Virus record (IMG/VR): IMGVR_UViG_3300037471_001079 | Coordinates: 19,877-83,876 of that record | Length of the DNA stretch: 64,000 nt | Direction: 5' to 3' (one strand) | From: a virus | Lineage: Duplodnaviria > Heunggongvirae > Uroviricota > Caudoviricetes | Shown here: positions 97 through 21,800 of the stretch, in pieces | Layout of the letters: each line of letters begins with the position of its first letter | How positions within the stretch are numbered: the stretch's first letter is position 1 | The notes under the pieces: generated by a model | Databases searched by the model: none | Seen by the model: the letters and a program-made list of their open reading frames with translations, nothing else | Told to the model about the DNA's origin: nothing | Made by a program: the position numbers and the translations under genes

Positions 97-1701
97 TTAG
101 CTGAAGTACCCTTCGTTGATGGCTGGAGCGTAGACGTCCTCACCAACCTGCAGGGCCTTGAGGAACCCTGGATGGATACCATCCTCGCCGATCGCCAGCT
201 TCACGATGGCACCGGAGGCGTGAGAGTTGGTGACCGAAGACGCAAGTGAGCTGGAGAACGGGCTCGCATTCGAACCAGGCTGCGTGACCGTCAAGATGGT
301 CTTGGACTCAGGCGTACCGCCGGTGTCGATGGCGATGCAGCTGTTCTCTGGTGCAGCCGCGACCAGCGAGGCAGTGGTGGCCGCCGCCGCCATAAGCGCT
401 GATAGTGTCGTCGACCATCCGGAGTTGAACCCGGCGGGCAGAGACCAGGTGTAGCGGGTGCCACCAGCCGAGTACTTGTCCCAACCGTCGAGCGAGTTGA
501 TGATCCGATCGACGCCGACGTTGCGAGGGCCGCTGATGAAGTACTCGTGCAAGCCCCAAGCTGAGCCCGTGCTGTAGGTCCAGTTGGCCGACTGAGCCGA
601 CTGGTTCGTCACCGTAGTGAACCCGTCCGTCGAGGCAATGCGAGGAGCCAACGTCGACTGCACCAGAGGAACGCTGGGCCACTGGGCTTTGACGGCCTGC
701 CACATCGTGGTCATGGTAGAGATCCAGGTCGACAAGGTGCCGGTCTGGTCGTTGGTGCCGAAGCCGGAATAGACCGACGTGAACGGCAGGGCGCCCCTGG
801 GGTTGCCCTTCGAGATCGCCAGGATGGCTCGGGCACGACGGCTGAGACCAGAGCTACCGTTGATACCGGCAGCCAGGCCGCCAGAGACAGCCCAGTTGGC
901 GGCGGGTACACGAGGAGCGCCGTTCTTCTTGCTCGTCAGACCAAGACCGATTGGGCCAGCCTCGCCGAACCGATTGCAATGCATGCGGCTCTGGCCGACG
1001 CCCTGCTCGATCGACGTGCCGAGCACCAGCACCACAGGACGACCGTCCCAACCCTGAGCGACCATGGCGCAGGGACCGAACGGGTACTGGCTGTTGCCGG
1101 AGGGGATGGTCGTGGAGATGCCGCCCGCCATCACCTTGTCGGCGAGAGAGGACGTGCCGACCTCGGCCTTGTCGCCGAAGCGCGGGCGGATACCCTGAGC
1201 CGGAGACGACAGATAGGACGTGGAAGTGGGCACCGACCAGGCCGTACGGACGCAACACAGCGTCGCCGGCGGGATGGCGATCAAGGTGTTGGCGTCGGTC
1301 CAGATCTCAGTGTCGTCCACCAGCGTATAGGGCTGAGTGGAGCTGTTGATCGAGAGCTTGATAGGAGAACCGGCCAGGCCGACCTGCAGGCTCATTGCCT
1401 CGACGGTGGTGTTGTTGCCGTTGGCGGCTTCCTGCCCACCGGCGCCGGACGTCGTCTCATACCAGTTGGCGATCAGGAATCGAGGAGCGAAGGTCCAGTA
1501 GTCGTCAGAGACGAACCACTTCTCCGCGACGCCGAACAAGGCAGAGGCACCAGGCTGGTAGTGTTGAGTCGGCGCCCGGAAGCCGTTCGACGAGAACATA
1601 TACCTGGACTGATTGGCCTGAATATAGGCCGCTGCCGGCCCCATAATGGGGTCGATCAGCTTCTGGGCCAGGTCTCTTCCGAAGACGGTTTCAAAACTCA
1701 T
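97..1701 (-). CDS. 534-aa protein whose C-terminal half looks like an SGNH/GDSL-type hydrolase (esterase); N-terminal ~200 aa unknown
   Basis: GTSIEQG block resembles SGNH block I (GDS variant); C-terminal DGIHPG matches the catalytic DxxH block V; last gene of the late operon, after the lysis cassette. Confidence 0.45.
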   Translation of the reverse strand: MSFETVFGRDLAQKLIDPIMGPAAAYIQANQSRYMFSSNGFRAPTQHYQPGASALFGVAEKWFVSDDYWTFAPRFLIANWYETTSGAGGQEAANGNNTTVEAMSLQVGLAGSPIKLSINSSTQPYTLVDDTEIWTDANTLIAIPPATLCCVRTAWSVPTSTSYLSSPAQGIRPRFGDKAEVGTSSLADKVMAGGISTTIPSGNSQYPFGPCAMVAQGWDGRPVVLVLGTSIEQGVGQSRMHCNRFGEAGPIGLGLTSKKNGAPRVPAANWAVSGGLAAGINGSSGLSRRARAILAISKGNPRGALPFTSVYSGFGTNDQTGTLSTWISTMTTMWQAVKAQWPSVPLVQSTLAPRIASTDGFTTVTNQSAQSANWTYSTGSAWGLHEYFISGPRNVGVDRIINSLDGWDKYSAGGTRYTWSLPAGFNSGWSTTLSALMAAAATTASLVAAAPENSCIAIDTGGTPESKTILTVTQPGSNASPFSSSLASSVTNSHASGAIVKLAIGEDGIHPGFLKALQVGEDVYAPAINEGYFS

Positions 1702-3719: not shown

Positions 3720-5930
3720 TCAGTAATAGATGGCGTGCGTGCTCGGGAACGCCCCAATGTCCGCGGCGCTGTGAGGCGCGCCGTGGTCGCGCATCCACTG
3801 GCCGACCATGTTGTAGGTGAGCGCCCCAGGCAGGACGTTGTTCAGGAAGCAGTAGGCCATCAGGATGCCGCAGGCGTTGCCGCCGGCCGCATAGCCAGGG
3901 TCGAGCCGGAGCACCGCCCAGCACGGCCGCGAGCACGAGACCGCCGCGGAGACGATCAGGTTGTCGCAGACGCCCTTCTGCGGACGGATGTTGTCGAGAC
4001 CGATACCGATGTAGCTGGCGCCCTCGAACCCATGCGGGTACTCCTGGGTGGAAAGGAGGCCGCCACCCGGCAGAACTGCATCGCGCCCATGGTGGATATC
4101 GAAGGCGTAACCTCCCCACCAGAGGGCATCGACCACCTGGTTGGTGTAAGGCCAGGTCCTGAGTGGGTCGGCCAGGTACTGCCGGTCAATGGTACCGGTC
4201 GATGTGGCGCTGAACGTCATCGGCGAGCCGGTCAGGGTCGCCTTGATCGAATAGCGGTTTGCATCGATGACCGTGTGGACGCGGTAGACCGTACCTTCTG
4301 TCACCTCGGGAGGTAGGGTGGCGCCGCTCTCCTTGGTGAACTTGACACGGAAGTTGGGCTGCAGGTTGTGGGCGGTGTCGGTGACGTAGCTGGTGACGCT
4401 CGAGAACGTGGCCGTCGAGAACGTGTCCTCGCGCTCAGGCTCGTCCTGGGCCAGCTGGTTGCCCCAAACATCAGGCCAGGTGATCACCCGCCGGCCGATG
4501 ATCCGCCGGTCGCCGCGCGTGTAGAGCAGCTCCGGCATGCCCGCGACCATGTAGTATGGCTTGTTGGTGGAGCCGTCGTACTCGTCCTTGCACAGGCCGT
4601 AGGAGGCCACGGAGTTGCGTAGAGCAGCCGGTAGCTCTGAAGCGGTGGCAGCGGTGTAGATCTTGCCGAGCCACTGGTAGTAGAACTCCCACTTCAGCTC
4701 CTCACGGCGCTCGAACGAAGCACGAGGGTATTCCCAAGCCAACCGGCCGCCGATGTCACCGGAGTTGGTGGCGAACTTGTCGAGCGGGACGCCGTTCTTG
4801 ATGATCTGGTTGGAGAACGTACCGGCGGAATAGGACTGAGTGCCGGACTGAGTGCCAGATGTATTGACAGCAGAACCACCAACTGTGGCAGATACTTGGA
4901 ACGTATCAGTGGTAAGACCGCTAGCTATGACATAGTAAGCAATGTCAGCAGTTAGCCCAGTGGGGAGTGCGCCAGTCGTAAAGAAGTAAACTTTAGCACC
5001 TGCAGTGAGACCATGGGCTGTTTTTGTAATAACTGCGGGGGATGCGATAGAGATGGTGCATTGGATGGTAGCAGTCGAGCCCTTACTGATGCCAACGGCA
5101 GCCGCCGTCGTGGCACCGGTGGCCAGCAGATAGTTGATCCACTCGCGGAAGTCGTTCTTGTTGTAGCCCGGCGGCTTGCAGTGAACATCGCCGAACGACC
5201 ACATGTTGGCCGCGGTCTGCGTGATGACCGGTCGGATATTGTACGGCTCTGTGTTGAGATCCGCCGCGTAATCAGGCGCCTCGCCAGGATACTCATACAG
5301 CTTGTAGATCGAACCGCGGCTGTCCCGGAGAGTGGTGGTGGCCTGGACAGTGCCGTTGATGAAGTCCTGGTTGCCGCCAACGAACTCGTTGTACTGGGAG
5401 CGACCCTCTCGGACGCTCGACATGAAGCCGCCCGAGACAGCGTAGAGATCGCCGAGTGGCGAGCAGTCGACCCAGAGGCCGGACGTGATCACCGTCTCGG
5501 TGTTGTCGTCGCGGTTCTTGAACGTGATCGAGGTGAAGCCGTTGGTGTCCTTGCGGACGGAATCTTCCAGTATCTGCTCGCGGTACATGAAGGTGACGGA
5601 CCCCTGAGTGAGGTCCGCCAGCATGTCGTCCATGACCGACTGGGCGTCGGCAGGCAGGAACCACTTCACCGACGGTGGACCGTTGAGGGCATTGGCCGCC
5701 GGGTAGTTGAACTTCTGGATCAGGCGACCCATGAACTCGTTGTAGCGGCCCCAGTGAGCGTGACCCTGTGCGGCCTCGTCAGACCCGAAGATCTGCGTGG
5801 CCATCATGCTGCCCCTGGTCGCGTCAGGGCCGATGCATAGCGCGTCGCCCCCGGTCAGTTCGGCGAAGTCCAGGGCACCGAAAAAGGCACCCATGGTCGT
5901 GTCATAAAATACGCAATCAAATGCTGACAT
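3720..5930 (-). CDS. Large (736 aa) tail fiber or tailspike-like protein, possibly carrying an enzymatic (depolymerase) domain
   Basis: position distal to the J-derived fibers; size; Thr/Ser/Gly-rich central repeats; no specific catalytic motif identified. Confidence 0.4.
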   Translation of the reverse strand: MSAFDCVFYDTTMGAFFGALDFAELTGGDALCIGPDATRGSMMATQIFGSDEAAQGHAHWGRYNEFMGRLIQKFNYPAANALNGPPSVKWFLPADAQSVMDDMLADLTQGSVTFMYREQILEDSVRKDTNGFTSITFKNRDDNTETVITSGLWVDCSPLGDLYAVSGGFMSSVREGRSQYNEFVGGNQDFINGTVQATTTLRDSRGSIYKLYEYPGEAPDYAADLNTEPYNIRPVITQTAANMWSFGDVHCKPPGYNKNDFREWINYLLATGATTAAAVGISKGSTATIQCTISIASPAVITKTAHGLTAGAKVYFFTTGALPTGLTADIAYYVIASGLTTDTFQVSATVGGSAVNTSGTQSGTQSYSAGTFSNQIIKNGVPLDKFATNSGDIGGRLAWEYPRASFERREELKWEFYYQWLGKIYTAATASELPAALRNSVASYGLCKDEYDGSTNKPYYMVAGMPELLYTRGDRRIIGRRVITWPDVWGNQLAQDEPEREDTFSTATFSSVTSYVTDTAHNLQPNFRVKFTKESGATLPPEVTEGTVYRVHTVIDANRYSIKATLTGSPMTFSATSTGTIDRQYLADPLRTWPYTNQVVDALWWGGYAFDIHHGRDAVLPGGGLLSTQEYPHGFEGASYIGIGLDNIRPQKGVCDNLIVSAAVSCSRPCWAVLRLDPGYAAGGNACGILMAYCFLNNVLPGALTYNMVGQWMRDHGAPHSAADIGAFPSTHAIYY

Positions 5931-5933
5931 GAA

Positions 5934-8078
5934 TTACAATCCAGAAATAGCAGTCACGAGAGTATCAACAGCCGCCTTGAGGTTCGTGATCTCGGACGGA
6001 GAGAGAGCCGTCGAGAGGAAGGCGAAACGCATATTCTCTGTTACATAGGAACTGGCCGTGATTGTGCCGTCGCTGTTGTTGACAGCGCAGCCGATCTTGA
6101 ACTCATGCGAGCCAACGCCGGTTGATGCTTGCGTCCAGGTGTGAGTTTCACCATTGGCGTAAGCGTCGTAGTCGGCCGCCTCGCGGCGGGTCATCACCAT
6201 CAAGCCAGTGTGGCTCGTTTGGGTATTCCAGGTATCGGTGCTGGTGGCGTTGGCTCTGGTGAGCAGACCCGTGGTGCGGTTGGAGATCTGCATCAGGCCG
6301 TTGGAGATATGCTGCGTGGCCGAGTTGCTCGCCGGCGTCGTCAGTGCGGAGGCAAACCCGAGCGAGAAGTTGTCCTGGCCGAGAGCGGTACCAGCCAGCA
6401 GCTTGCCGGTGTCGAGGCGGGCGCCGAGGGTGTTACCAGCGAACTGGTAGCCCTGCTTCGAGTCTCGGATGAAGTCGGCGAGCGTCTTGCCGGAGCCGCT
6501 GACGACGGGCGCCGCTGCGTCGTCCGAGGCCCAGTTCTCCAGCGCGAGCAGGTTGTCCGGTCCGACGAAGACGTAGAAGAACACGCTCTTGGCGATGATC
6601 GGCATCGTCGAGGCATAGAAGGCCCGAAGCGGCGTATCCCAGGACGAGGTGAGGATCGTGGAGTTGCGGCTGAGTATCCGATCGAAGCCGATGTCGGCGA
6701 CGATGTTGCGGCCGTCGGTGGTCGACATGTAACAGCTGATCGGCGTGTCGGCGACGTCAGCCTTGATGCGGACCGGGGTTGGCAGCTGCCGGTCGGCCGT
6801 GAAGCTGCCACCCGGGAGGATTTTGGCGCCGGTTGTGGTGGTCGGATCAGCGCCGCCGAAGTCGATCCGGATGATCGGAACCGCCGCGGTCGGATCTGTC
6901 GGCATGTCGGCGTTGTTGAACAACATGAAATCTTTAAGACTCGGCGCAATCGGCACAAGTTCTTGTGCTGATGTTCCGACGTTCATATACAAAGGAAACC
7001 ACGTAACCGGATCGTCCATTAAACTACCTTCCAAAAGTACCCAAGTATTTTCGAGAAAAATTGAGCGCGTATATTCATTCGCGCGGATTACACCAGGATA
7101 AACTCTCGTCCCGTCCGGGTAGACGAGTGGCCGACCGAGAAGAGTAGCATCCTTGGCATTGGTGAACGTGGTCCGCCAGATCAGCTCAGTGCCATTCGGA
7201 ATAATCGCCGGCATTACAGGGCTGGGCGTACCAGTGTAGGCAGCAGACGTGCCACCAGCCGACAGCATCAAATGTGTCTGCGGAGCAACACCATCAGGCG
7301 ACGTCTCAGTGGACGTCACCGTGTATTCATTGGAGATACTGAGGTCGGTGGAGCTGAACGTGTCGTAAGCCCCGACCCGGACGTAGTAGACCGTCGAGGG
7401 AGCGACATCGAGCGTGATGGTATCGTTGACGCCGGCATAGGCCGGCGTCGTCGTCAGTGGATTGAAGCCGGAGATCGTCGACATCCAGACCTTCATGCCG
7501 GCAAAGTCGATGTCGACCGGCCGGTTGATGCCGACGGTCATCTTCGTGTCTGTGATGTCGAAGATGGGGACCGCGGTCCTCGGCACCGGGTTGGACACAC
7601 CAAGCGTGGTCCAGTCTGAAACGTTGCCGAGGCTGTCGGCGACGCGGACGCGCAGGACGAAGTTTCGGTAGGGACCGCCGTCGGTGGTGGCGAACGCCGT
7701 GGTGTATGTGAAAGTCGGGGTGGTAACCGTCCTGGTCGTCGGCGTGCCGAGGACGTTCACCTCGTAGTGGTGGAAGAACGGATCATCGCTGGCCGTCCAC
7801 AGGAACACCGGCTGTGGGACCGTGAAGACGTTGGCGCTGCCGCTGGCAGGATCGAGGATCAGACCGACCGGTTGGGCGATGACGCGGACCGAACCGGCGA
7901 TGTTCTTGGAGATGGTCGTGGTCGGTCCACGCTCGTCGAGATCATTGATGGGAGTGATCGCGACGGTGACCGTGCCGGAGTAAGTCGTCGGGATTTCAAC
8001 GCTAAGATCAGCGGTCGTCGTATTCGAGATGATAGTCCCGTCCGACTCGCGGACGATTACCTCATACAAATAACTCAC
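5934..8078 (-). CDS. Tail fiber / receptor-binding protein, paralog 2 (FN3-like N-terminal module related to the lambda J C-terminal region)
   Basis: N-terminus MSYLYEVIVRESDGTIIS... is paralogous to 8214..9986; YYVRVGAYDTFS motif resembles lambda J YYFYIRSVNTVGKS; C-terminal domain diverged. Confidence 0.55.
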   Translation of the reverse strand: MSYLYEVIVRESDGTIISNTTTADLSVEIPTTYSGTVTVAITPINDLDERGPTTTISKNIAGSVRVIAQPVGLILDPASGSANVFTVPQPVFLWTASDDPFFHHYEVNVLGTPTTRTVTTPTFTYTTAFATTDGGPYRNFVLRVRVADSLGNVSDWTTLGVSNPVPRTAVPIFDITDTKMTVGINRPVDIDFAGMKVWMSTISGFNPLTTTPAYAGVNDTITLDVAPSTVYYVRVGAYDTFSSTDLSISNEYTVTSTETSPDGVAPQTHLMLSAGGTSAAYTGTPSPVMPAIIPNGTELIWRTTFTNAKDATLLGRPLVYPDGTRVYPGVIRANEYTRSIFLENTWVLLEGSLMDDPVTWFPLYMNVGTSAQELVPIAPSLKDFMLFNNADMPTDPTAAVPIIRIDFGGADPTTTTGAKILPGGSFTADRQLPTPVRIKADVADTPISCYMSTTDGRNIVADIGFDRILSRNSTILTSSWDTPLRAFYASTMPIIAKSVFFYVFVGPDNLLALENWASDDAAAPVVSGSGKTLADFIRDSKQGYQFAGNTLGARLDTGKLLAGTALGQDNFSLGFASALTTPASNSATQHISNGLMQISNRTTGLLTRANATSTDTWNTQTSHTGLMVMTRREAADYDAYANGETHTWTQASTGVGSHEFKIGCAVNNSDGTITASSYVTENMRFAFLSTALSPSEITNLKAAVDTLVTAISGL

Positions 8079-8213
8079 GTCGGAAGAGGCTCCTTCCAGG
8101 AGATAATCAACTTCTTGCTGGAGCCACTACCGGTCGTAGTGACCGTCACATCTCTGACATTATCGGGTGTGTTGAAAAGATCCAAAATCATGCTCTACTA
8201 TATAGGTACTGAT

Positions 8214-9986
8214 TTACAGAGTTCCATATGCGGCCAAATACCAGGCCGTACCGTCAAAGACGAACTTTGCCCAACTATTAGTCACCAGTGCTTTCAATGT
8301 GGTGCCGCCAGCATCTTTGACATTCAGGTTCCACGGACCACCAGTATTGCCGCCGGTGCGGGTAATAGTGAACTCGTCGCCAGCGGTTGCGTTGGTAGTC
8401 GACAGAGTCGCTGCCCGGTCGGCCGTCAGGGTGCCGGTGTGGCGCTGGTTCACGGCCGAGGTTAGGACTGTCAGGGTGTAGTCGGCGTTGGTGCTGACCG
8501 ATTGTTGGCCGCCGTTGCCGGCTCGCTTCCACTGGGTGCCGTTGTGGATCAGGAGGTTGCCGCCGCCGCCGAGGTCGGTGGCGTATTCCTGCTTGCCAAC
8601 GGCGCCAGTGTGCAGGGTGGCGACGGTCGCCGTGCGGTTCACATGCAGGCGGTTGTTGTCGATGACCGCGTTGGCTCCAAAGAGTTGCAGCCCCGCCTCG
8701 TGATCGAACCGAAACGCTTCGACCACCGATGCGCCGCCTACCGGCACGATCGAAACGATCAATCTAGAGCCGAACGCGGTAGAGCCTGGTGTCGCCTCCA
8801 CCACCTGGGCGCGGATACGCACACCCTGCCGGAATGCAGCACCGTCGTAGCCGTAGGCGCTGAAGTCGCCGAGGGCGTCGTTCTGAGCAACTGCAGCCGG
8901 TGAGGCGATGGTGCCGCGTGCGTGCTGAGTAGAGATAACAGGAGCGACGCCGCTGCCGAGATAGTTAGTCGCCGTGAAGCCGGCATTCACCTCACCGATC
9001 ATCTGCGTGATCGCGCTACCGCCGGCATGGCTGAACGTCATGCCGACGGTCGAGAAGTCGAACTGATGCACCTTGTCGTAGGTGATGCTGAACACGCCGG
9101 TCGTGGCCGAGAAGATGCCGGCGTCGGCGATCTCGACCGCAGGGGCTGTCAGCGTTCCGCCCGAGGCCAGGTCGATCCTGGTTGGGAGCGTAGCTGCCGA
9201 GGATGTGGTCGAGTACTCCGACGAGATCACCAGGCCGGTCTGGCCGAAGGTGTCGTAACCAGCCACTCGGACGTAGTAGGTCGTGTCCGGATCGACCTTG
9301 GAGGCGATCGAGTCGTTGGTGCCGATATAGATTGGCGTCGTCGTGTTCGGATTGAAGCCGGACGTCGTCGACAGCCACACCTTCATGCCGACGTAGTCGG
9401 GATCGGACGGCGGCGTCACGTCGATGGTCAGCACCGCGGCGTTGACGGTCAGGGTCGGCACCAACGCCGCCGGGGTCGCATTCGAGACGGCCAGCTGGGT
9501 CCAGGCTGAGGTGTTGCCGAAGGTGTCTACGGTGCGGACCTGTAGGGTGAAGCTGCGGCTGGGCGTGCCGCTGTGGTCGGCGGCGTTCTTGGCGAAATCG
9601 TAGGTGTAGGAAGCTGTCGTGACCGTGTCCGACCGCGAGGTTCCCACCACCCCGACTTCATAGTGGTCGAAGTAGAGATCGGTCAGATCCGGGTCCCAGA
9701 CGAAGACCGGTTCCTTGACTGAGAAGGCCGAACCGGCGCCGCTGCCGGGGTCGAGAGCCAGACCGGTTGGGGGCGTCAGCGCGCGGGCTTCGCCGCCGAT
9801 GTTCTGGGTGATAGACGTGGTCGGGCCGCGGGCGCCGGTGGGGCCGATTGGAGTGACACTGATGGTGACGGTGCCGGCGGCGACGGACGGAAGCTCGACG
9901 CTCTTGTCGTTGGTATTGACACTGGAGATGATCGTCCCGTCGCTTTGACGAACAATGACCTCGTATTGCGACGTTATTCCCGACAT
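8214..9986 (-). CDS. Tail fiber / receptor-binding protein, paralog 1 (FN3-like N-terminal module related to the lambda J C-terminal region)
   Basis: N-terminus MSGITSQYEVIVRQSDGTIIS...; YYVRVAGYDTFGQT motif; start overlaps the stop of the J homolog. Confidence 0.55.
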   Translation of the reverse strand: MSGITSQYEVIVRQSDGTIISSVNTNDKSVELPSVAAGTVTISVTPIGPTGARGPTTSITQNIGGEARALTPPTGLALDPGSGAGSAFSVKEPVFVWDPDLTDLYFDHYEVGVVGTSRSDTVTTASYTYDFAKNAADHSGTPSRSFTLQVRTVDTFGNTSAWTQLAVSNATPAALVPTLTVNAAVLTIDVTPPSDPDYVGMKVWLSTTSGFNPNTTTPIYIGTNDSIASKVDPDTTYYVRVAGYDTFGQTGLVISSEYSTTSSAATLPTRIDLASGGTLTAPAVEIADAGIFSATTGVFSITYDKVHQFDFSTVGMTFSHAGGSAITQMIGEVNAGFTATNYLGSGVAPVISTQHARGTIASPAAVAQNDALGDFSAYGYDGAAFRQGVRIRAQVVEATPGSTAFGSRLIVSIVPVGGASVVEAFRFDHEAGLQLFGANAVIDNNRLHVNRTATVATLHTGAVGKQEYATDLGGGGNLLIHNGTQWKRAGNGGQQSVSTNADYTLTVLTSAVNQRHTGTLTADRAATLSTTNATAGDEFTITRTGGNTGGPWNLNVKDAGGTTLKALVTNSWAKFVFDGTAWYLAAYGTL

Positions 9987-9987
9987 T

Positions 9988-12390
9988 TCAAACCCACGAA
10001 ATAACTAGTCTTTTCTCCAAACTGGTTCCGATCTTGCGATTGACTGTTGTCGCACGCAGACTGGTGACAGCATCAGGCGGATCAGTTGGAGTGGAATGAT
10101 CTTGATCAGTAGAACTGGTGTATCCAAGGATCAGAGGAAACTTGTTTCTATTGACGAACGAGGCTGAAATTTGAATCTGATCGGTGTCATCATCTTTCGG
10201 TTCTATCGACAGAACACGATAAGGAAGTGGAACACCGGACTGACTGCCGGCGCTCTCCAGCGTGAACAGAGCGAACTCAGGAAGGAAGTCGATGCCGGGG
10301 CTGTAGGTCAGCTCCCTGGTCATCGGGTTGTAGCCGGTGACCGTTGCCGTCTCGACTTCCAAGCCAATCTGGAACCTGATCTGGTAGGTGAAACCCGGCT
10401 CCATCGAGATCGGCGCCGCCACGATGACGGCGGTCGAGGTCAGCTGCTCGGAGATGCGGCCGGAGATCCCGGTGTTCGAGTCCGGGTCAGCAATCAGGAT
10501 GATCTGGTAGGGCTTGAGATAGAGCCCCTGCCGGTTGGTGGTGAAGGTCACCATCCGGGTTTCGGTCGTGGCCGAGATCGCCTTGGAGTAGGCCCGACGG
10601 TAGGCCTCGGCAGCGTCAATGCAGCCGACCGCGGTGAAGTCGGTCGGGATCAGGCCGTATTTGGCGATGTGGTCGTCGAGCTGGAGCCGCCGGCGGTCTT
10701 CGTTCCAGTTGAGGTCGGGGTTCTTGAACCGGACGATGATGTCGTTGTAGCGGGTCGCAATGTCCGTGTACGAGTAGGAGAACAGGCCGTTCTCCACGTT
10801 CTCCGGCGCGAAGATCGCCACAGCCGGGTCGTTGGCGTCGAGCAGGATCTCGGCGTAGCCGTTGCCGTCGTCGACAAACCGGCCACCGAAGATGCCGCAG
10901 ACGTAGTCGATCAGATCAGAGCCTGGCTGGGCGTCGCTGAGTGTGCCGTTGAAGGTGAACAGCGGCTTGCCGCCCACCATGGTGTCGCAGAACTGGCCCG
11001 CCGCGTAGACGGTCCACTTGTTCAGGACGCAGGGATAGTAGGCGTTGAGACCGTACCGGTCGTTCATCACCAGGTCGTTGACGATGAAGGCCGGGTTGTC
11101 GGTCCAGGCCAGCTTCCAGGTCCCGTCCCAAATACCCGTATATACGCGGGTATCAGGGTTGTAGTTGGTGGGCACATTGACGATGCGACCCCACCAGATC
11201 CCGCTCATATTCTGGACCGAAGGGAACTGGTCGCTAGCCTGCACGAAGATGCGAGCACACGCCAGGTTCGGGAAATTCAGAGGTTTCGAAGACACCTCTT
11301 GAAAACTCTCCCACTGGATGTTCAGGAAGTAGTTGTTGTCGTGGTCCTCCATGTTCTTGACGGTGACACGCATGTCATAGGTGTCATCGATATTGGCGAC
11401 CGCCCAGCGAAGCTCCTTGACGAACGGCTCCTGGATCTTACCGGTGATCCGCAGATACTCGTCGGACGAGACAGTGTAACCGTTGGTCGGGTTGTAGGAC
11501 TGGGAATACTGCCACGCTTCGTTGGTGAAGATCATCACGACCACGCGGCCGGCGTCGGCCGGGTTTGCGGGGTTGATGTCGGTCGTGATCCAGAAGTCAC
11601 CCTCCACACCGGCGGGGGTGGTGGTCTGGTTGTAGAAGGCGTGGGTGGTGGTGCCTGTCTTGGGAGACGTGAAGGTCCACTTACCGGTTGTGCTGGTTAG
11701 ACCGGCAGCGTCGACCCAGGCCGAGCCGGACCAGATCTTCGGTCTGTAGCTGACAGCCGAGTTGAACCAGATGGCGTGATCCGGGATCTGGGCGGCCGGC
11801 GTCGTCGGCGTGGTCGACGAGATCAGCGTGTCGACGTCCCAGTAGGATGAGGGGACGGAGTCACCGTCGGTGCCGAGATGGGTGGAGTCGTCGGTGGTGT
11901 CGATCTCATCGACAAGGGTCGGGTTCTCCAGATAGGTCGCCACCGGCAGCCAGGTCGAGGAGGTCGTCGCCTTGTACTCAAGCTTGACGTCCACGTAGGT
12001 GGATTGGGGACCCTTCTTCTCGCTGTTGGCGTAGAGCTGGTTGATCAGCAGCCGCAGCTCGAGGAAATCGATGTTGCGATGCGTACCGGTGCGGACGACC
12101 GGCGTGCCCATGGCCAGCTCGGTGTTGACGCTGGTCGGCGACGAGGAGCCGCCAAGCTTCAGCTTGATGTTCGGCGGCTCCGGGATGCCCTTGAAGACTT
12201 CGAGCTCGAATGAGACGAAGTTCGACTTGTTGTCGATGTTAACGAGCGGCGTGTCGCCGACAAAGAACTCCTTGGCGCCGCCTTTCAGGCCCAGGATAGG
12301 TCCCTCGGAAATGCCGAGGACCATCTCCATAACATCGTTGGACTCTGCAATGGCCGGCTGGTTCTGGACGTTAACGTTGAAACTAGCCAT
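9988..12390 (-). CDS. J: Tail tip / host-specificity protein, homolog of the N-terminal ~800 aa of lambda gpJ
   Basis: blocks match remembered lambda J: LGISEGPILGLKGG vs ISEGPIEGPVDGL; RIVNVPTNYNPDTRVYTGIWDGTWKLAWTDNPAFIVNDLVMNDRYGL vs RILQVPSNYNPQTRQYSGIWDGTFKPAYSNNMAWCLWDMLTHPRYGM; follows the gpI homolog. Confidence 0.7.
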   Translation of the reverse strand: MASFNVNVQNQPAIAESNDVMEMVLGISEGPILGLKGGAKEFFVGDTPLVNIDNKSNFVSFELEVFKGIPEPPNIKLKLGGSSSPTSVNTELAMGTPVVRTGTHRNIDFLELRLLINQLYANSEKKGPQSTYVDVKLEYKATTSSTWLPVATYLENPTLVDEIDTTDDSTHLGTDGDSVPSSYWDVDTLISSTTPTTPAAQIPDHAIWFNSAVSYRPKIWSGSAWVDAAGLTSTTGKWTFTSPKTGTTTHAFYNQTTTPAGVEGDFWITTDINPANPADAGRVVVMIFTNEAWQYSQSYNPTNGYTVSSDEYLRITGKIQEPFVKELRWAVANIDDTYDMRVTVKNMEDHDNNYFLNIQWESFQEVSSKPLNFPNLACARIFVQASDQFPSVQNMSGIWWGRIVNVPTNYNPDTRVYTGIWDGTWKLAWTDNPAFIVNDLVMNDRYGLNAYYPCVLNKWTVYAAGQFCDTMVGGKPLFTFNGTLSDAQPGSDLIDYVCGIFGGRFVDDGNGYAEILLDANDPAVAIFAPENVENGLFSYSYTDIATRYNDIIVRFKNPDLNWNEDRRRLQLDDHIAKYGLIPTDFTAVGCIDAAEAYRRAYSKAISATTETRMVTFTTNRQGLYLKPYQIILIADPDSNTGISGRISEQLTSTAVIVAAPISMEPGFTYQIRFQIGLEVETATVTGYNPMTRELTYSPGIDFLPEFALFTLESAGSQSGVPLPYRVLSIEPKDDDTDQIQISASFVNRNKFPLILGYTSSTDQDHSTPTDPPDAVTSLRATTVNRKIGTSLEKRLVISWV

Positions 12391-13261
12391 ACTTCAATTG
12401 CAACTTGAACATACTCATAAAAGAATGATCGAGAATTTCTCCGTCCTTTAATATAAGATCGAAGACGCCATAAGTCCAACCGGTGGTGTTGTGCTTGGCG
12501 TAGGCCTCGACATGCTTGTCCGGCATGGCCGAGCCGACGTTCAGAATGGTGATCTTCTTGTTGAGGCCGATCTTCTTGGCGTTTTTGACGTTGGCCACAT
12601 GGGTGTGACCAAAGACGATCGAGTGGATGGCGTCGTTGGCGATCTGGTTCTCGGGCTGCTTGCCGCCATAGGGCTTGCCCATCGTGTTGAACGGCGCGTG
12701 GGTGAAGCCGACGCCGTCGATGAAGACCCAGTCGCCATAGTCGACCGTGGACCAGTCGTGGTCGTGCATCAGGCCGGTCACCCGGCAGTAGAAGTCATCC
12801 TCCACTTCCGGGTGGGCGTTCTCCCAGAGCTTCACCCGATGCTCGTGATTGCCGAGCGTCACATGCTTCTCGGGATCGTACGTAAGCTCTCCATCCAGCA
12901 ACGAGAGCGCTTGTTCGCCGCTCTCCAAATCGGCCAGGAACGACGGCTTCTTCCTGCCAGATATCGTCCCCCACTCCTCGTGCCGGCTGCAGCTGTCCAT
13001 CGTCAGCAGATCGCCGATCTGGACGACGTGATCGGGCTTGGTCTCGTTGATGTGCCGGCCGATCCAGGTGAACCGCCTTTTGTCCTTTAGGTGCGGACTG
13101 TCGTGACTGTCTCCGATGACGCATACCGAAGTGTAATCTTTCTCAGATTTGAGACGACGGCGTAAGGTTCTCTCGGAGATTTGATGACCGATCGAACGGA
13201 GGTAACGCTCAGCAGCACGTATAGAGCCGCAATCTGCAATAATTTTCTCATAATCCATCAC
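12383..13261 (-). CDS. N-terminal HTH domain fused to a calcineurin-like metallophosphoesterase, inserted between the gpI and gpJ homologs
   Basis: metallophosphoesterase motifs GDSHD, GDLL, GNHEH, GHTH in canonical order; N-terminal IIADCGSIRAAERYLRSIGHQISERTLRRRL resembles an HTH. Confidence 0.6.
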   Translation of the reverse strand: MMDYEKIIADCGSIRAAERYLRSIGHQISERTLRRRLKSEKDYTSVCVIGDSHDSPHLKDKRRFTWIGRHINETKPDHVVQIGDLLTMDSCSRHEEWGTISGRKKPSFLADLESGEQALSLLDGELTYDPEKHVTLGNHEHRVKLWENAHPEVEDDFYCRVTGLMHDHDWSTVDYGDWVFIDGVGFTHAPFNTMGKPYGGKQPENQIANDAIHSIVFGHTHVANVKNAKKIGLNKKITILNVGSAMPDKHVEAYAKHNTTGWTYGVFDLILKDGEILDHSFMSMFKLQLKYG

Positions 13262-13785
13262 GAAACAATAGCCATTGCATCAACGTCAAATGAAAGAATG
13301 TGACCGGCCCATTTATCACGGCCGTAAATAATTGCTATCGGCGTACCGATATCGACTGTATTTTCGTTCGACCCTAGATAGTGGTTTTTCTTTGGACCGT
13401 CTGCTTTCGGTGACGGCTGCAGGTAGGACATGATGCCGCCGAGCACCATCAGTGCGCCGGACAGGATCAGATTGACGTTACCGGTGAAGATGCCGACGAT
13501 GATAAGGGCGACACCGATCAGGATCTGGATGAAGCCGCCGGACTTGCCGCCAGCGAACTGGGGAACGATGTCGAGCTCGGTGACCGCCAGGGGTTTGAAG
13601 AGGTCCTCAAAGGTCTCGTGGCCGACGACGGCCACGCGCTTGTAGCCGTTGATCGGATCGGGCCGGAAGCCGGGGAGCTGCCGGGAGATCGCCTCGACCG
13701 CCTCGGCAGCGGTCGCCGCGTTGATGACGATCGGTTCCGGGTGGATAGCCTTGAGCGAGCCGTGCAGGCGTATCGTTATACGCAC
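13258..13785 (-). CDS. I: Tail assembly protein, lambda gpI homolog
   Basis: AGGKSGGFIQILIG and MVLGG match lambda I (AGAKSGGVFQIVLG...MVLGG); ubiquitin-like N-terminus, hydrophobic C-terminus. Confidence 0.65.
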   Translation of the reverse strand: MRITIRLHGSLKAIHPEPIVINAATAAEAVEAISRQLPGFRPDPINGYKRVAVVGHETFEDLFKPLAVTELDIVPQFAGGKSGGFIQILIGVALIIVGIFTGNVNLILSGALMVLGGIMSYLQPSPKADGPKKNHYLGSNENTVDIGTPIAIIYGRDKWAGHILSFDVDAMAIVS

Positions 13786-14159
13786 TCGATCACCTGCCCG
13801 GTTTCATGAACAACGTAGCAGCGGATGCCATCGGAGCCGATGATGTAGTGGGTGAGCTCGGGCCAGGCCCTGAAGGCCAAGTCGTCCCTGAGGCTCATGC
13901 TCGCGGTCTTGCCAGGATGGGTGTGCCAAGTGGCGTCGGCGGTGAGCCCATACGAAAACAGGTCCGAGGCGCTCACCTCGAACCCGTCAGTTGGATCTTT
14001 TGCCTTGTTCTCGACCTCGATCAGGGTGAGGTCTGGCATGATGAAGCCGACCCGCTCAGGCCCTTCCTCGCTGTAGAGCGAGAGCAGCTTCGAATTGAGC
14101 TCGTTTAGCTGGTGAGAGGAGATCCAGGATGTTGGTGCGCTCGGACTGGTCGGATGCAT
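13776..14159 (-). CDS. JAB/MPN+ (JAMM) metalloprotease domain protein, corresponding to the N-terminal half of lambda gpK encoded as a separate ORF
   Basis: JAMM motif HTHPGKTASMSLRD (HxHx7Sx2D) with an upstream Glu; true start may be the internal Met at ~14039, since the long ORF overlaps the NlpC/P60 gene by 104 nt. Confidence 0.6.
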   Translation of the reverse strand: MHPTSPSAPTSWISSHQLNELNSKLLSLYSEEGPERVGFIMPDLTLIEVENKAKDPTDGFEVSASDLFSYGLTADATWHTHPGKTASMSLRDDLAFRAWPELTHYIIGSDGIRCYVVHETGQVIECV

Positions 14160-14550
14160 TTACAACAGAGGGATGTCTTAAATGAGCAACTATGAAATTA
14201 CGCCAGCCCGCAAATGGCTCGACGCGCGACAATCTATTCCAGAGATGGTGTAGGATCTGGCCATTTTCAAGTAGAATCACAGCGTGGTTGGCCACTGTCG
14301 ACTGGATCGCCAAGAGAAAAGCATCGCCAGGGCGCCAGAACGTCGGGTGTTCATCCACTACATCGAAGCCTTCCTTGTAGAAGTTTTCCATGTAGAGGTT
14401 CTTGCCCTCGTCCCACCACTTGGAATCGTGCGGGTAGTCCGCAAGGACCAGGCCGTAGTTGTCCTTGTAGAACCTCTGGACCAGGGTGTAGCAGTCGTTG
14501 ACGCCGTGCTCGAAGGGGATGCCCTGCAGATGGTCGACCTTGAGCATCAC
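14056..14550 (-). CDS. K: NlpC/P60 peptidase domain protein, corresponding to the C-terminal half of lambda gpK
   Basis: FEHGVNDCYTLVQRFY / DSKWWDEGKNLYMENF / NHAVILLENGQILHHL match lambda K C-terminal region (FEHGVTDCYTLFRDAY / EDDWWRNGQNLYLDNL / NHAAIYCGDGELLHHI). Confidence 0.7.
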   Translation of the reverse strand: MMLKVDHLQGIPFEHGVNDCYTLVQRFYKDNYGLVLADYPHDSKWWDEGKNLYMENFYKEGFDVVDEHPTFWRPGDAFLLAIQSTVANHAVILLENGQILHHLWNRLSRVEPFAGWRNFIVAHLRHPSVVNASDQSERTNILDLLSPAKRAQFEAALALQRGRA

Positions 14551-18800: not shown

Positions 18801-21800
18801 CGCGTTGGGCTTCCAGGCCGTTCAGCAGCTGCTGGAACTGCTCGATCTTCCTGACGTCTTCCGCGCCGTTGCCGCCAAGCTGTTCGCTCAGGTCCTTGAA
18901 CTGATTGAACTGGGCCATCAATTGCTTGACAGCAACGACGCCCTTGGTGATGTCATCGTCGGTGAAGTTCTTAGTGACACCGGTGGCGATCTCGAACGCC
19001 TTCCTGATGTCCGGGCCGAATGTCTGCTCCAGACCCTTCGGGATCGCAGCCTTTACCTCTTCAGGGGTCAGAGGCCGCGTGACGTTGCTGTCCCGAACCG
19101 CGGTCACGGCGTAGGGAGCGAACGTCTTGTTGAGAGCAGGCGTCTGCTGCTTGAGGTTTTCCTCAACCTTCTTCGCCAGTTGCTCGTCCAGGAGCTGCAG
19201 GTCGATCAGCTTCTCACGCAGCGCACCGGGGATATCCGCCTGGAGCTTGCCTTCGAGCTTCTCCAGGGCCGTGATCAGGTCGCCAATCGAGCCGGTTGTG
19301 CCCTGGAATTCCAGGCCGAGATCAGCGAAGGCGTTCTTCACCTCGATGATCTTGGTCTGCTTCATGATCGGGTCGTTCTCCAGCTGGGCGCTGCGCGCGT
19401 TGAGCTGGTCGATCGTTTCCCGTATCCTGGCGATCGCGTTCGTCTTCTCCGAGATCGTGCCTTCGACCTCGTTGAGCTTGCCCTTCAGCTTGTCGATCTT
19501 CTCGGCCGTTGTCTCGACCGAGCCGCCCCAGTTGAGGAATCCGATCGCCACAGTTGCCAGGAGGCCAAGGATGACGCCAAATGGGCCGCCGAGGAAGCTG
19601 ACGGCCCTGGAGAGCAGACCGACGGCGCCGGCGGCTTCGGTCACCGCGCCGGTGACGGCCGGCACCGCAGCCGCAACGGCGCCGGCCCCTCGGGTCAGGC
19701 CAAGGAAACCGCCGGCCAGCGAACCAAGAGCGCCTAGAATCTTGGTGGTGGTGAAGGCTGCGAACAGGCTCCCGATGACCGGCACCACGTAGGGGATCTG
19801 GTTCGCAGCGGCGATCACGTTGGTGAGACCGGTCGCGACGAGCTTCAGAGTCTCCAGGAACGGCTTGAACGCATTGTAGGCCGCGGTTAGGACCGTGGAC
19901 CCGAGCTTCGCCATGATGCTGGCGAAGCTCTCCATGTTGGTGGCCGCGGCCTGGGTTGCAGCCTGGGTCAGGGCGAACTGCTGCTCCAGGTTCTTGGCCG
20001 CTTCCAGGTTGTTGTTCAGGGCCGAGTAGGCCTGGACCGCGCGGACCTCGAAGGTCTGGAAGGCGTCCGCGGTGGTGAAGCCCTTCTTGTTCAGGTTGTC
20101 GAGGACCCCGACCAGGCCGTTGGTCTTGAGGTCGATGTCGGCCAGGGTGATGCCGAGCTTGTCGAAGGTGGTCTTCGCCTTCTCGGTCGGGTTCTGGAGA
20201 TCGATGAAGAGCTGGCGCAGGCCGGTGCCAATCGTCGAGCCTGACCGGATGCCGGCGTTGGACAGGGCGCCGATCGCGGCTATCAACGAGGTGTAGTCCT
20301 CGCCAGCGTCCTTGGCGATGTTCGAGGAGTACTGCAGCGCCGTCGACAGCTGATCCATAGTCAGCTTGGTCGAGTTCAAGGCCTGCGTCATCACGTTGGC
20401 GATCTGCGCGATCTCCGGACCCTGGAGATCGAACACGTTGAGCAGGTTCGTCAGCACGTCGGTAGACTGCTGCAGCGTCGAGCCCGAGGCCGAGGCCAGG
20501 TTCAGGACCGCCGGCAGAACATCGGTCACCTGCTTGGCGGACAGACCAGCCTGGCCGAGGGTGGTGGCGATGCCGGCCACCTCGCTGGCAGTGAACTTCG
20601 AGGCCTGGGCGACGGCGAGCAGGTCCTTCTCGAACTGGCCCATCTGCGACTGGGACGTCGCCGTGATGGCCTGGAACTGCTTCAGGTTCTTATCGAGCTC
20701 GACGATGCCGCTGATCAGGCCGTAGACGCCGCCGAAGGCGCCACCGATCAGGGCGTAGTCGGCGATGTTGCTGAACCGCTCAGCCAGTAGTGGGGCGCCA
20801 CCCTGGAAGTTCCGGCGAGCCTGCTGGAACTGCAGCTGGCTACCGACACGGTCTTCCAGCGTCCGCGGTGCAGCGGCGTTGGCCATCTTCTCTCTGGCGG
20901 CTGCTTCCCGCTCCGCGGCCTGGGCTGCCTTGCGATCGGCGGCCTCCTTGATCTTGTTGAGCCGGAGCTGCTCCTGGTAGGTCGCCAGCAGTTGGGTCTG
21001 CTCTTCCTGAGACTTGGCGAAGAATTCATCAGGTGTCAGACCAAGCGCCTTGATCGCCGTACTGGTGCGAATGTCACGGCGAGCGGTGCTCAGGCCGCGA
21101 GCATTTTCACGATTGACGTTGCCCTGGCCGGTGAAGTTCTCAATCGTCTGGGAAAGTGTGTCCGCTTCCTTGGTGGCTCGCGCCTTCAGGAAGGTCTGAG
21201 CGTTAAGGCCGGCAGCTTCGAGCTGCTTGTTGAGTTTCTCTTCTGCCTCGGCCGCACGCTGGGCCTCCCTGGCGCGCCGCTGCTCGGCCTGGAGCCGACG
21301 CTCGGCCTGGCGCAGAATCGCCTTCTTGGCGGCGTCATCCTTATCGGCAAATTCCTGATCGGTCATATTGACCGTGCGGAGGAGATCCTGCCTTCGGTTG
21401 TCGGTGCGAGCTCGGTTGAGCCCCTGCTGAGCCAGGGTGCCGCTCAAGTTGGTGACGAACTTGTCGACCAGCTGGCCGATGTCGTTGTTGAGCTTGGTGA
21501 AGCGGGCCTGCAGGACCTGCGACTGAGAATTGAGCTGTGCCTGGGTCTGCTGGAAGAGCTGGTTGGTGGTGTTCGCCCGAATGTTATCGGTGGAGGCGCC
21601 GGGCGACTTGAGGGTACTGATCTGGAGCTGGCCGAGGCCTTTCTGGAAGGCTTTGCCCTGCAAGGTGGAGAGTCGCTCAATCTGAGAATTGAGCGACTGC
21701 AACTGCTTGGTCAGGACTTCGACCTGCTTGGCAGCACGTTCGGCTTGAGTCTCGGTTGTTCCGAGGTCTAGATTTACGCCAACATTAATATCGTCGTCAG

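Follow-up and report, generated by a model that had tools for sequence, protein, structure and literature searches.

A 64,000-nucleotide (nt) stretch of DNA from a tailed virus of the class Caudoviricetes (the window; positions 19,877 to 83,876 of the IMG/VR record IMGVR_UViG_3300037471_001079) contains a tail-tip gene block in which a lambda J-like hub gene is followed by two tandem paralogous genes for putative receptor-binding proteins (RBPs), RBP-A and RBP-B. The J open reading frame (ORF) stops inside a fibronectin type III (FN3 or FNIII) domain, the remainder of which is encoded at the start of RBP-A, and a 38-codon stub ORF in front of RBP-B carries a copy of the J tail. The genes had been outlined in a preliminary description, whose coordinates were all correct; the N-termini and the YYVRVAGYDTFG motif quoted there were both found in the proteins. 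The block includes the following features, with lengths in amino acids (aa):

9988..12390, minus strand: J-like ORF, 800 aa, a J-type tail-tip hub, shorter than single-chain J proteins
9991..10083, minus strand: J tail (approximately residues 770-800), strands A and B of the first FN3 domain, with the end EKRLVISWV followed by the stop codon
8214..9986, minus strand: RBP-A ORF, 590 aa, ATG start
9156..9986, minus strand: RBP-A N-terminal module (aa 1-277), strands C-G of the first FN3 domain and two more FN3-like domains
8214..9155, minus strand: RBP-A distal part (aa 278-590), the presumed receptor-binding end
8075..8191, minus strand: 38-codon stub ORF (MILDLFNTPDNVRDVTVTTTGSGSSKKLIISWKEPLPT and stop), a copy of the J tail (FN3 strands A-B)
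5934..8078, minus strand: RBP-B ORF, 714 aa, GTG start
7248..8078, minus strand: RBP-B N-terminal module (aa 1-277), a paralog of the RBP-A module
5934..7247, minus strand: RBP-B distal part (aa 278-714), orphan sequence
3720..5930, minus strand: gene 3, 736 aa, a PF12831-family protein with a phage-tail-type insert

The J ORF is preceded by a 1974-aa ORF of tape-measure size and then by five ORFs matching the PHROG tail families of lambda M, L, K and I. It was recognized by PF24801 (gpJ FNIII-A; 41.5 bits vs. a cut-off of 27), by PF13550 (Phage-tail_3; 30.1 bits vs. a cut-off of 23) and by phrog_31, "central tail fiber J" (E-value (E) 7e-110), over profile positions 390-894 of 1565. The scores for the curated NCBIfam models were below the cut-offs (154.6 vs. 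1950 bits for lambda_TipJ and 59.9 vs. 140 bits for attach_TipJ_rel), and the protein is a distant relative of the lambda TipJ family, not an equivalog. Among its named homologs, the best are from Hyphomicrobiales (Terrihabitans, Rhizobium).

As the preliminary description had claimed, J is only 800 aa long, and the FN3 string of a J-type protein carries on in the two tandem paralogous genes. The last J residue lies after strand B of the first FNIII domain, the remainder of which is in the next ORF, and the N-terminal modules of both RBPs match phrog_31 from position ~902. J alone shared 35% identity with the J protein of Caulobacter phage Seuss. When J and RBP-A were concatenated, they aligned with this 1577-aa single-ORF protein over 1105 aa (35% identity, E 2e-158) and, likewise, with the 2064-aa J of Rhizobium phage RHph_X66, in both cases without a gap at the junction. 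The RBP-A module was colinear with residues ~826-1096 of Seuss J. An exhaustive HMMER search with the module profile matched 1422 proteins. Of the 150 best, about 145 were 1200-4000 aa long and had the module at approximately residues 680-1100. Thus, the module is nearly always internal to long J-like proteins, and a separate fibre gene starting with it is an exception. Among the candidates for further stand-alone module proteins, P0026 (428 aa; contig L015, Logan ERR7015320_535314) was a gene-calling artefact at a contig end, its frame being open upstream; P0045 had no start codon and is a fragment; P0100 was ambiguous. The end of the L015 contig appeared adaptor-like by eye, with three frames reading DVYKRQ / MCIRDRS.

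The alignments and a structural model put the split between J and the fibres inside an FN3 domain and not at a domain border, a point that the preliminary description had missed. J ends with EKRLVISWV just after the strand-B tryptophan, and RBP-A begins with MSGITSQYEVIVRQ, which is strand C (YEVIVR). The same stretch reads LTVSWDASPSKW in Seuss and LTVSWSPPPNTLVRGFVVAV in RHph_X66, comprising strand B, a loop and strand C of an FN3 domain, and in both alignments the junction directly follows the conserved SW. A single chain composed of the C-terminal 41 residues of J and residues 1-178 of RBP-A was modelled with AlphaFold2 (AF2) with no alignment. A seven-stranded sandwich was predicted with a predicted local distance difference test (pLDDT) score of 75-93, in which the strands at 16-28 and 31-42 come from J (junction 41/42) and the other five from RBP-A. 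Beyond residue 106, the pLDDT was below 50, and the fold of the second domain is accordingly putative. According to Foldseek, the structures nearest to the model were lambda gpJ and the T1 tip, followed by canonical FN3 domains at a root-mean-square deviation of 2-4 Å. Pfam Ig_J (PF24421) matched across the J tail and RBP-A below its cut-off (E 0.0027), and no useful match was obtained when the PDB was searched with the sequence of the junction region. Neither fibre can be extended upstream over strands A-B: in the RBP-A frame, a TAG six codons upstream blocks the extension, and the RBP-B frame has 16 open upstream codons, none of which is a start codon. Consequently, each fibre starts with an FN3 domain short of two of the three strands of one sheet.

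It could be supposed that J and RBP-A are one protein, made by a programmed frameshift (+1 at GUU UGA A) or disrupted by an indel from sequencing or assembly in the run GGGTTTGAAA. Phage tail genes do use programmed frameshifts, as in lambda G/GT, and changing one base would bring the frames together at both junctions of the window. However, these two junctions need opposite shifts, +1 and -1; no slippery heptamer (X XXY YYZ) was seen by eye at either of them, and the downstream RNA folds were unremarkable (z -0.9 and -0.2). Furthermore, two assemblies agree base for base: over their common parts, an 83.8-kb Logan contig and a 13.6-kb JGI contig are 100% identical to the window; the two count as one line of evidence and are not independent. 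The preliminary description had also mentioned prophages, but no sign of prophage origin was found, the window matching this 83.8-kb metagenomic phage contig, which carries ribonucleotide reductase genes.

Cuts inside a domain were also found at hub-fibre junctions in other lineages:

L012: J of 791 aa, 40% identical to the window J, ends with PPSNLQVTTI (strand A) and the stop codon; the next ORF overlaps it by ATGA and starts with MNNGVQISISWDP, the cut lying between strands A and B
L027, 2010..5707 (Logan SRR29078156_5103): a different hub type, 667 aa, ends with PPNVSGLEIFTP (strand A) and the stop codon; the next ORF overlaps it by GTGA and starts with VTTNVQWLGRDCKFVW, the cut lying between strands A and B
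L013, 10001..15738; L014, 1..3613; L018, 891..7297; L020, 2498..6348: four J proteins of 930-947 aa from different samples

The junction in L012 was matched by Pfam fn3 with 28.7 bits, above the 25-bit cut-off. The hub of L027 belongs to a family unrelated to that of the window, and its neighbour has a T5 pb9-like DTP domain. The four J proteins of the third group are 45-64% identical to each other and end with (I/L)(V/I)W(G/S/D) and the stop codon, past the strand-B Trp of the second FN3-like domain. The next ORF begins 1-2 nt after the stop (GTG, ATG, TTG and TTG, respectively) and continues with (S)HY.IEI; the domain cut in this clade is uninterrupted in RBP-A and RBP-B. In total, in-domain cuts occur in four lineages including the window, and within one of them the cut is conserved over deep divergence.

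The frame offset is +1 at the first junction of the window and in L014, and -1 at the second junction of the window and in L012, L013, L018 and L020. These varying offsets, together with the unremarkable RNA, make a shared frameshift signal or a sequencing error very unlikely, and the cut site is kept among proteins of only 45-64% identity from different samples. We therefore give very little credence to a single J and RBP-A polypeptide, and the cut junctions argue for separate, translationally coupled proteins. As for closer relatives of the block, megablast with the 8.7-kb block gave no match among 50,697 phage records, and J-based scans of viral, metagenome and genome contig collections revealed nothing closer than ~40% identity; those J relatives of ~40% identity all carry a single long J. 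Only three loci were found when viral contigs were scanned with the N-module profile. None of the cultured phages in the phage collection falls into the split clade, the nearest being Seuss with its single ORF.

The homology of the RBP N-termini proposed in the preliminary description proved significant (BLASTP: 139/277 identities (50%), E 1e-79, residues 5-277 vs. 8-278), and past the module BLASTP found nothing significant, so that the C-terminal parts are, as had been stated, unrelated at the sequence level. Thus, a paralogous N-terminal module is combined with non-homologous distal parts in the two tandem genes. At the DNA level, the modules are ~60% identical overall and 67-68% identical in the best segments. 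With a synonymous divergence (dS) of ~1 and a ratio of nonsynonymous to synonymous divergence (dN/dS) of ~0.48, the pair goes back to an old duplication or to an acquisition from a diverged relative, and constraint acted on each copy during most of the time since they split. The pair is the sole DNA repeat in the block and lies in direct orientation. An invertible segment of the Mu G / P1 C type was rejected, as both genes are on the same strand, no flanking inverted repeats are present and the only direct repeat is 60-68% identical. A diversity-generating retroelement was rejected as well, no template/variable repeat pair being found besides the N-module pair.

The distal part of RBP-A, from residue 277 to ~480, is 29% identical (E 2e-25) to residues 34-240, the N-terminal half, of P0001, a fibre-like protein from an unrelated podophage-like contig with a T7-type portal and an adjoining SASA esterase gene. 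P0001 was also the single, distant match to RBP-A in a word-indexed search of 5.8 billion proteins. This similarity starts exactly at the residue (~277) at which the similarity between RBP-A and RBP-B stops. Such a sharp boundary with a switch to P0001-like sequence is direct evidence of module exchange, and is what the domain swapping suggested in the preliminary description predicts. The distal part of RBP-B found only a fragment of RBP-B itself in the same protein search and had no tblastn match among phages; its last ~100 aa were weakly similar to the C-terminus of P0001 (pairwise E 6e-5). A profile of the RBP-B and P0001 C-termini compared with the C-terminus of RBP-A by hhalign gave a probability of 0.1%. 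No Pfam or NCBIfam family matched the distal part of RBP-A and no family matched that of RBP-B, and the family searches assigned neither protein to an enzymatic or lectin family. A lambda-type helical shaft, beta-prism or receptor-binding domain was not recognizable in either of them. A LamG-like C-terminus of RBP-B, guessed by eye, was dropped as it had no Pfam match, and the AF2 prediction for the distal part of RBP-B (mean pLDDT 31.7) gave no usable model.

The preliminary description interpreted these genes as host-range diversification by RBP duplication and domain swapping. The duplicated anchor and the swapped distal parts are supported by the above comparisons, and the effect on the host range is only plausible. 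If both proteins are mounted on virions, they may confer different host specificities, the two distal parts being predicted to bind separate receptors.

The 135-bp interval 8079..8213 between the two RBP genes had been described as a spacer of lower guanine plus cytosine (GC) content. Its GC content is indeed lower, 0.46 vs. 0.594 for the window, and is the same as in the final 120 nt of J (0.47), but the interval is not a spacer: it holds the 38-codon ORF copying the J tail (ending with KKLIISWKEPLPT and the stop codon). The best local alignment of the stub anywhere in J is with residues 771-799, at the very end of the protein, with a score of 48 that was reached by 4 of 2000 shuffles. Between the stub and the J tail, 11 of 24 aa are identical; the proportion of nonsynonymous differences (pN) is 0.37 vs. 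0.83 for synonymous ones (pS), the synonymous sites being saturated. The stub ends with LIISW and keeps the hallmark residues of FN3. Pfam fn3 (PF00041) matched across the junction of the stub and RBP-B with E 0.003, below the gathering score. The TGA of the stub overlaps the GTG start of RBP-B (GTGA), the Shine-Dalgarno sequence of RBP-B, GGAAGGAG, lies inside the stub, and the stub was called as a gene in both source assemblies. Since the stub copies the J tail, the repeated unit consists of the A-B hairpin (the J tail) together with the fibre, and not of the fibre alone. The stub may be a relic kept for translational coupling, a strand donor private to RBP-B, or a temporary cap that is swapped for the J tail.

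A relic would fit the explanation that only RBP-A works, while the stub and RBP-B are a leftover of recombination (the 3′ end of a split J from another phage with its fibre) that is not assembled or is being lost. The stub ORF would then be open only through coupling of RBP-B translation, or by chance. In line with this, the stub starts exactly where the J similarity begins, with stop codons before it, and 15% of shuffles of the same composition are also free of stops over 37 codons. In addition, the distal part of RBP-B is an orphan, and neither L013 nor L018 showed a second, stub-preceded fibre. However, RBP-B is fully open over 714 codons and has a good Shine-Dalgarno sequence and a start overlapping the stub stop. 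A dN/dS of ~0.48 at a dS of ~1 indicates constraint on both N-modules for most of their divergence, and the stub retained the FN3 hallmarks with a pN far below pS. We consider this explanation rather unlikely.

Alternatively, the 38-aa peptide is made and serves RBP-B as a private strand donor or cap, either keeping it soluble until the J tail displaces the peptide, much as strands are exchanged in chaperone-usher pili, or completing it permanently, in which case RBP-B would be a side fibre or a free protein. The order of the elements is preserved in both copies, the peptide retains the A-B hairpin pattern and, as mentioned above, the gene callers of both assemblies called its ORF. On the other hand, the Shine-Dalgarno sequence before the stub ATG, as read from the sequence, is weak, this is a single instance with no relatives, and no precedent was found in the literature covered. 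We hold a private donor to be unlikely. Equally speculative is a broader proposal in which siphophages would have repeatedly evolved a split-FN3 tag and catcher, with one or two beta-strands at the hub end accepting any fibre that has the matching incomplete FN3 domain, and the stub peptide would be a strand-donor chaperone for RBP-B, displaced by the J tail in a donor-strand exchange, so that either tip could be built without a DNA switch; we think it doubtful.

Instead, we consider it fairly probable that the hub and the fibre form a non-covalent joint by FN3 strand complementation, and that this joint serves two alternative central fibres. The tail-tip J of this lambda-like siphophage would be made as two chains, an 800-aa hub and a separate central fibre comparable to T5 pb4. 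As the hub ends in the A-B beta-hairpin and the fibre begins at strand C, neither piece can form the FN3 domain alone, and the joint is, therefore, most likely an FN3 domain rebuilt from two chains. The anatomy of the junction and the conservation of the cut both suggest such an association. RBP-A would use the hairpin at the end of J, and RBP-B is preceded by a stub that still encodes the hairpin and is coupled to it via the GTGA overlap. The string of three FN3 domains common to both fibres would dock on the hub, and the distal parts are unrelated; with this common docking string, the phage probably mounts either receptor-binding end on the same hub. J is probably a trimer with three FNIII strings, as judged from lambda and T5, and a trimer of RBP-A or of RBP-B could then fill the three hairpins. 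Both fibres would be assembled into virions, and the outcome would be two kinds of tips from one genome, or a spare specificity.

Several points weigh against the strand-complementation joint. The AF2 model of a covalently fused chain shows only that the sequences are compatible with one FN3 domain, and the association of the hub and fibre chains is a prediction. In the window itself, the Pfam matches spanning the junctions stay under the gathering score (E 0.003). If it is made, the 38-aa peptide could occupy the incomplete domain of RBP-B and keep it off the hub. With no family assigned to either distal part, receptor binding is assumed from position only. Finally, the window has no close relative (the best J homolog is 41-43% identical), this arrangement is represented by one instance, and the two assemblies carrying it are 100% identical and may stem from one sample.

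Gene 3 had been listed as a third large fibre or tailspike gene. Its product matched Pfam PF12831, a family of flavin adenine dinucleotide (FAD)-dependent oxidoreductases (FAD_oxidored), with E 7.5e-24. A segment of ~65 residues (291-356) has 53-60% identity to part of the tail or minor-tail proteins of phages of Microbacterium, Rhizobium and Sinorhizobium (phiLM21). Near the N-terminus, the glycine motif for dinucleotide binding appears degenerate by eye (VFYDTTMGAFFGAL), and no PDB or NCBIfam match was obtained. Gene 3 therefore encodes a PF12831-family protein with a short tail-protein module and no recognizable fibre or spike. An internal repeat suspected by eye was not supported by BLASTP. 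Since gene 3 starts 3 nt past the stop codon of RBP-B, the two are probably co-expressed. It is uncertain whether the protein is a part of the fibre apparatus; it may be a tail-associated enzyme or a binding protein of an unusual fold family.

Between the genes of the block, no promoter- or terminator-like sites were found on the coding strand, the counts not exceeding the shuffled background. An endolysin and an esterase-like gene lie downstream of the block. The latter (97..1701, minus strand), located after the lysis genes, encodes a 534-aa SGNH/lysophospholipase-L1-like esterase (phrog_8480, E 1e-28) that may be a surface-polysaccharide deacetylase tied to adsorption; P0001 likewise neighbours an esterase (SASA). 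On the other side, a metallophosphoesterase gene (12383..13261, minus strand; phrog_221, E 2e-38) occupies an unusual place between the gpI-like tail assembly gene and J. The equivalent of lambda gpK is represented by two ORFs, NlpC/P60 and then JAB/MPN (13776..14550, minus strand), and the same layout was found in the related contigs L013 (8695..9475) and L020 (1225..1966). Dips in GC content to 0.53-0.56 occur within genes at 6800..7400 (the boundary of the RBP-B module and distal part), 4800..5200 and 11000..11600, which is consistent with mosaic joints.

The known system closest to the window is that of T5, in which the hub and the central fibre are likewise separate chains jointly forming one FNIII string, the fibre running on into a distal receptor-binding end. 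In T5, the hub pb3 ends with two FNIII domains and the fibre pb4 starts with three, and the contact is made via loops of complete domains (PMC10038345). Thus, the T5 cut lies between whole FNIII domains, with the loops and the pb4 N-terminus in contact, whereas in the window strands A-B are on the hub and strands C-G on the fibre. The window has two alternative fibre genes and the stub, whereas in T5 there is a single pb4 gene, with pb5 as a separate RBP. The third domain of the window module gave a weak match to Fn3-I_PB4 (PF24169; E 0.005, 17.7 bits vs. a cut-off of 27). In lambda and F-type pyocins, the FNIII string lies within one J chain and relays the signal from the receptor for opening the tube (PMC11101478, PMC13455828). 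The J proteins of lambda, Seuss and RHph_X66 share with the window the hub domains, the FNIII string and the gene order after the M/L/K/I homologs, but are single polypeptides of 1132-2064 aa.

Tandem RBPs that keep an N-terminal anchor and swap their distal domains are known, examples being the dual tailspikes of SP6/K1-5, TSP1-4 of CBA120 and the depolymerase sets of Klebsiella phages. These resemble RBP-A and RBP-B in having a common N-terminal attachment module, unrelated C-terminal specificity modules and a sharp recombination boundary. However, they are side or branched tailspikes of podo- and myophages carried on whole adaptor domains, while in the window the alternatives appear to be central fibres of a siphophage whose anchor is an incomplete domain. 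Chaperone-usher pili and the engineered split domains of SpyTag/SpyCatcher would follow the same principle, an incomplete immunoglobulin-like or FN3 sandwich being completed by strands of another chain in a presumably very stable joint. The pilins lack the C-terminal G strand, whereas the window fibres lack the N-terminal A-B hairpin; there is no sequence relationship, the window contains no chaperone or usher, and no isopeptide bond is implied. In the literature, which was incompletely covered, we found no description of an in-domain cut in siphophage tips, and the in-domain cut, the recurrence of such cuts and the J-tail stub go beyond the known split hub/fibre systems with modular RBPs.

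The way in which the hub and the fibre are joined decides how easily the host range can be changed, naturally or by engineering. The known joints are one long J chain, as in lambda, or two chains meeting at the faces of complete domains, as in T5. If the proposed joint is true, a two-chain FN3 domain could bear the pulling force of tube opening and yet accept different fibres. The window represents a natural experiment in this respect, with two fibres having the same incomplete domain and a free copy of the missing hairpin. Strand complementation at the tail tip would then be a new case of this principle in virus assembly, and a hub interface of ~30 residues could be used for the plug-in retargeting of phages and tailocins.

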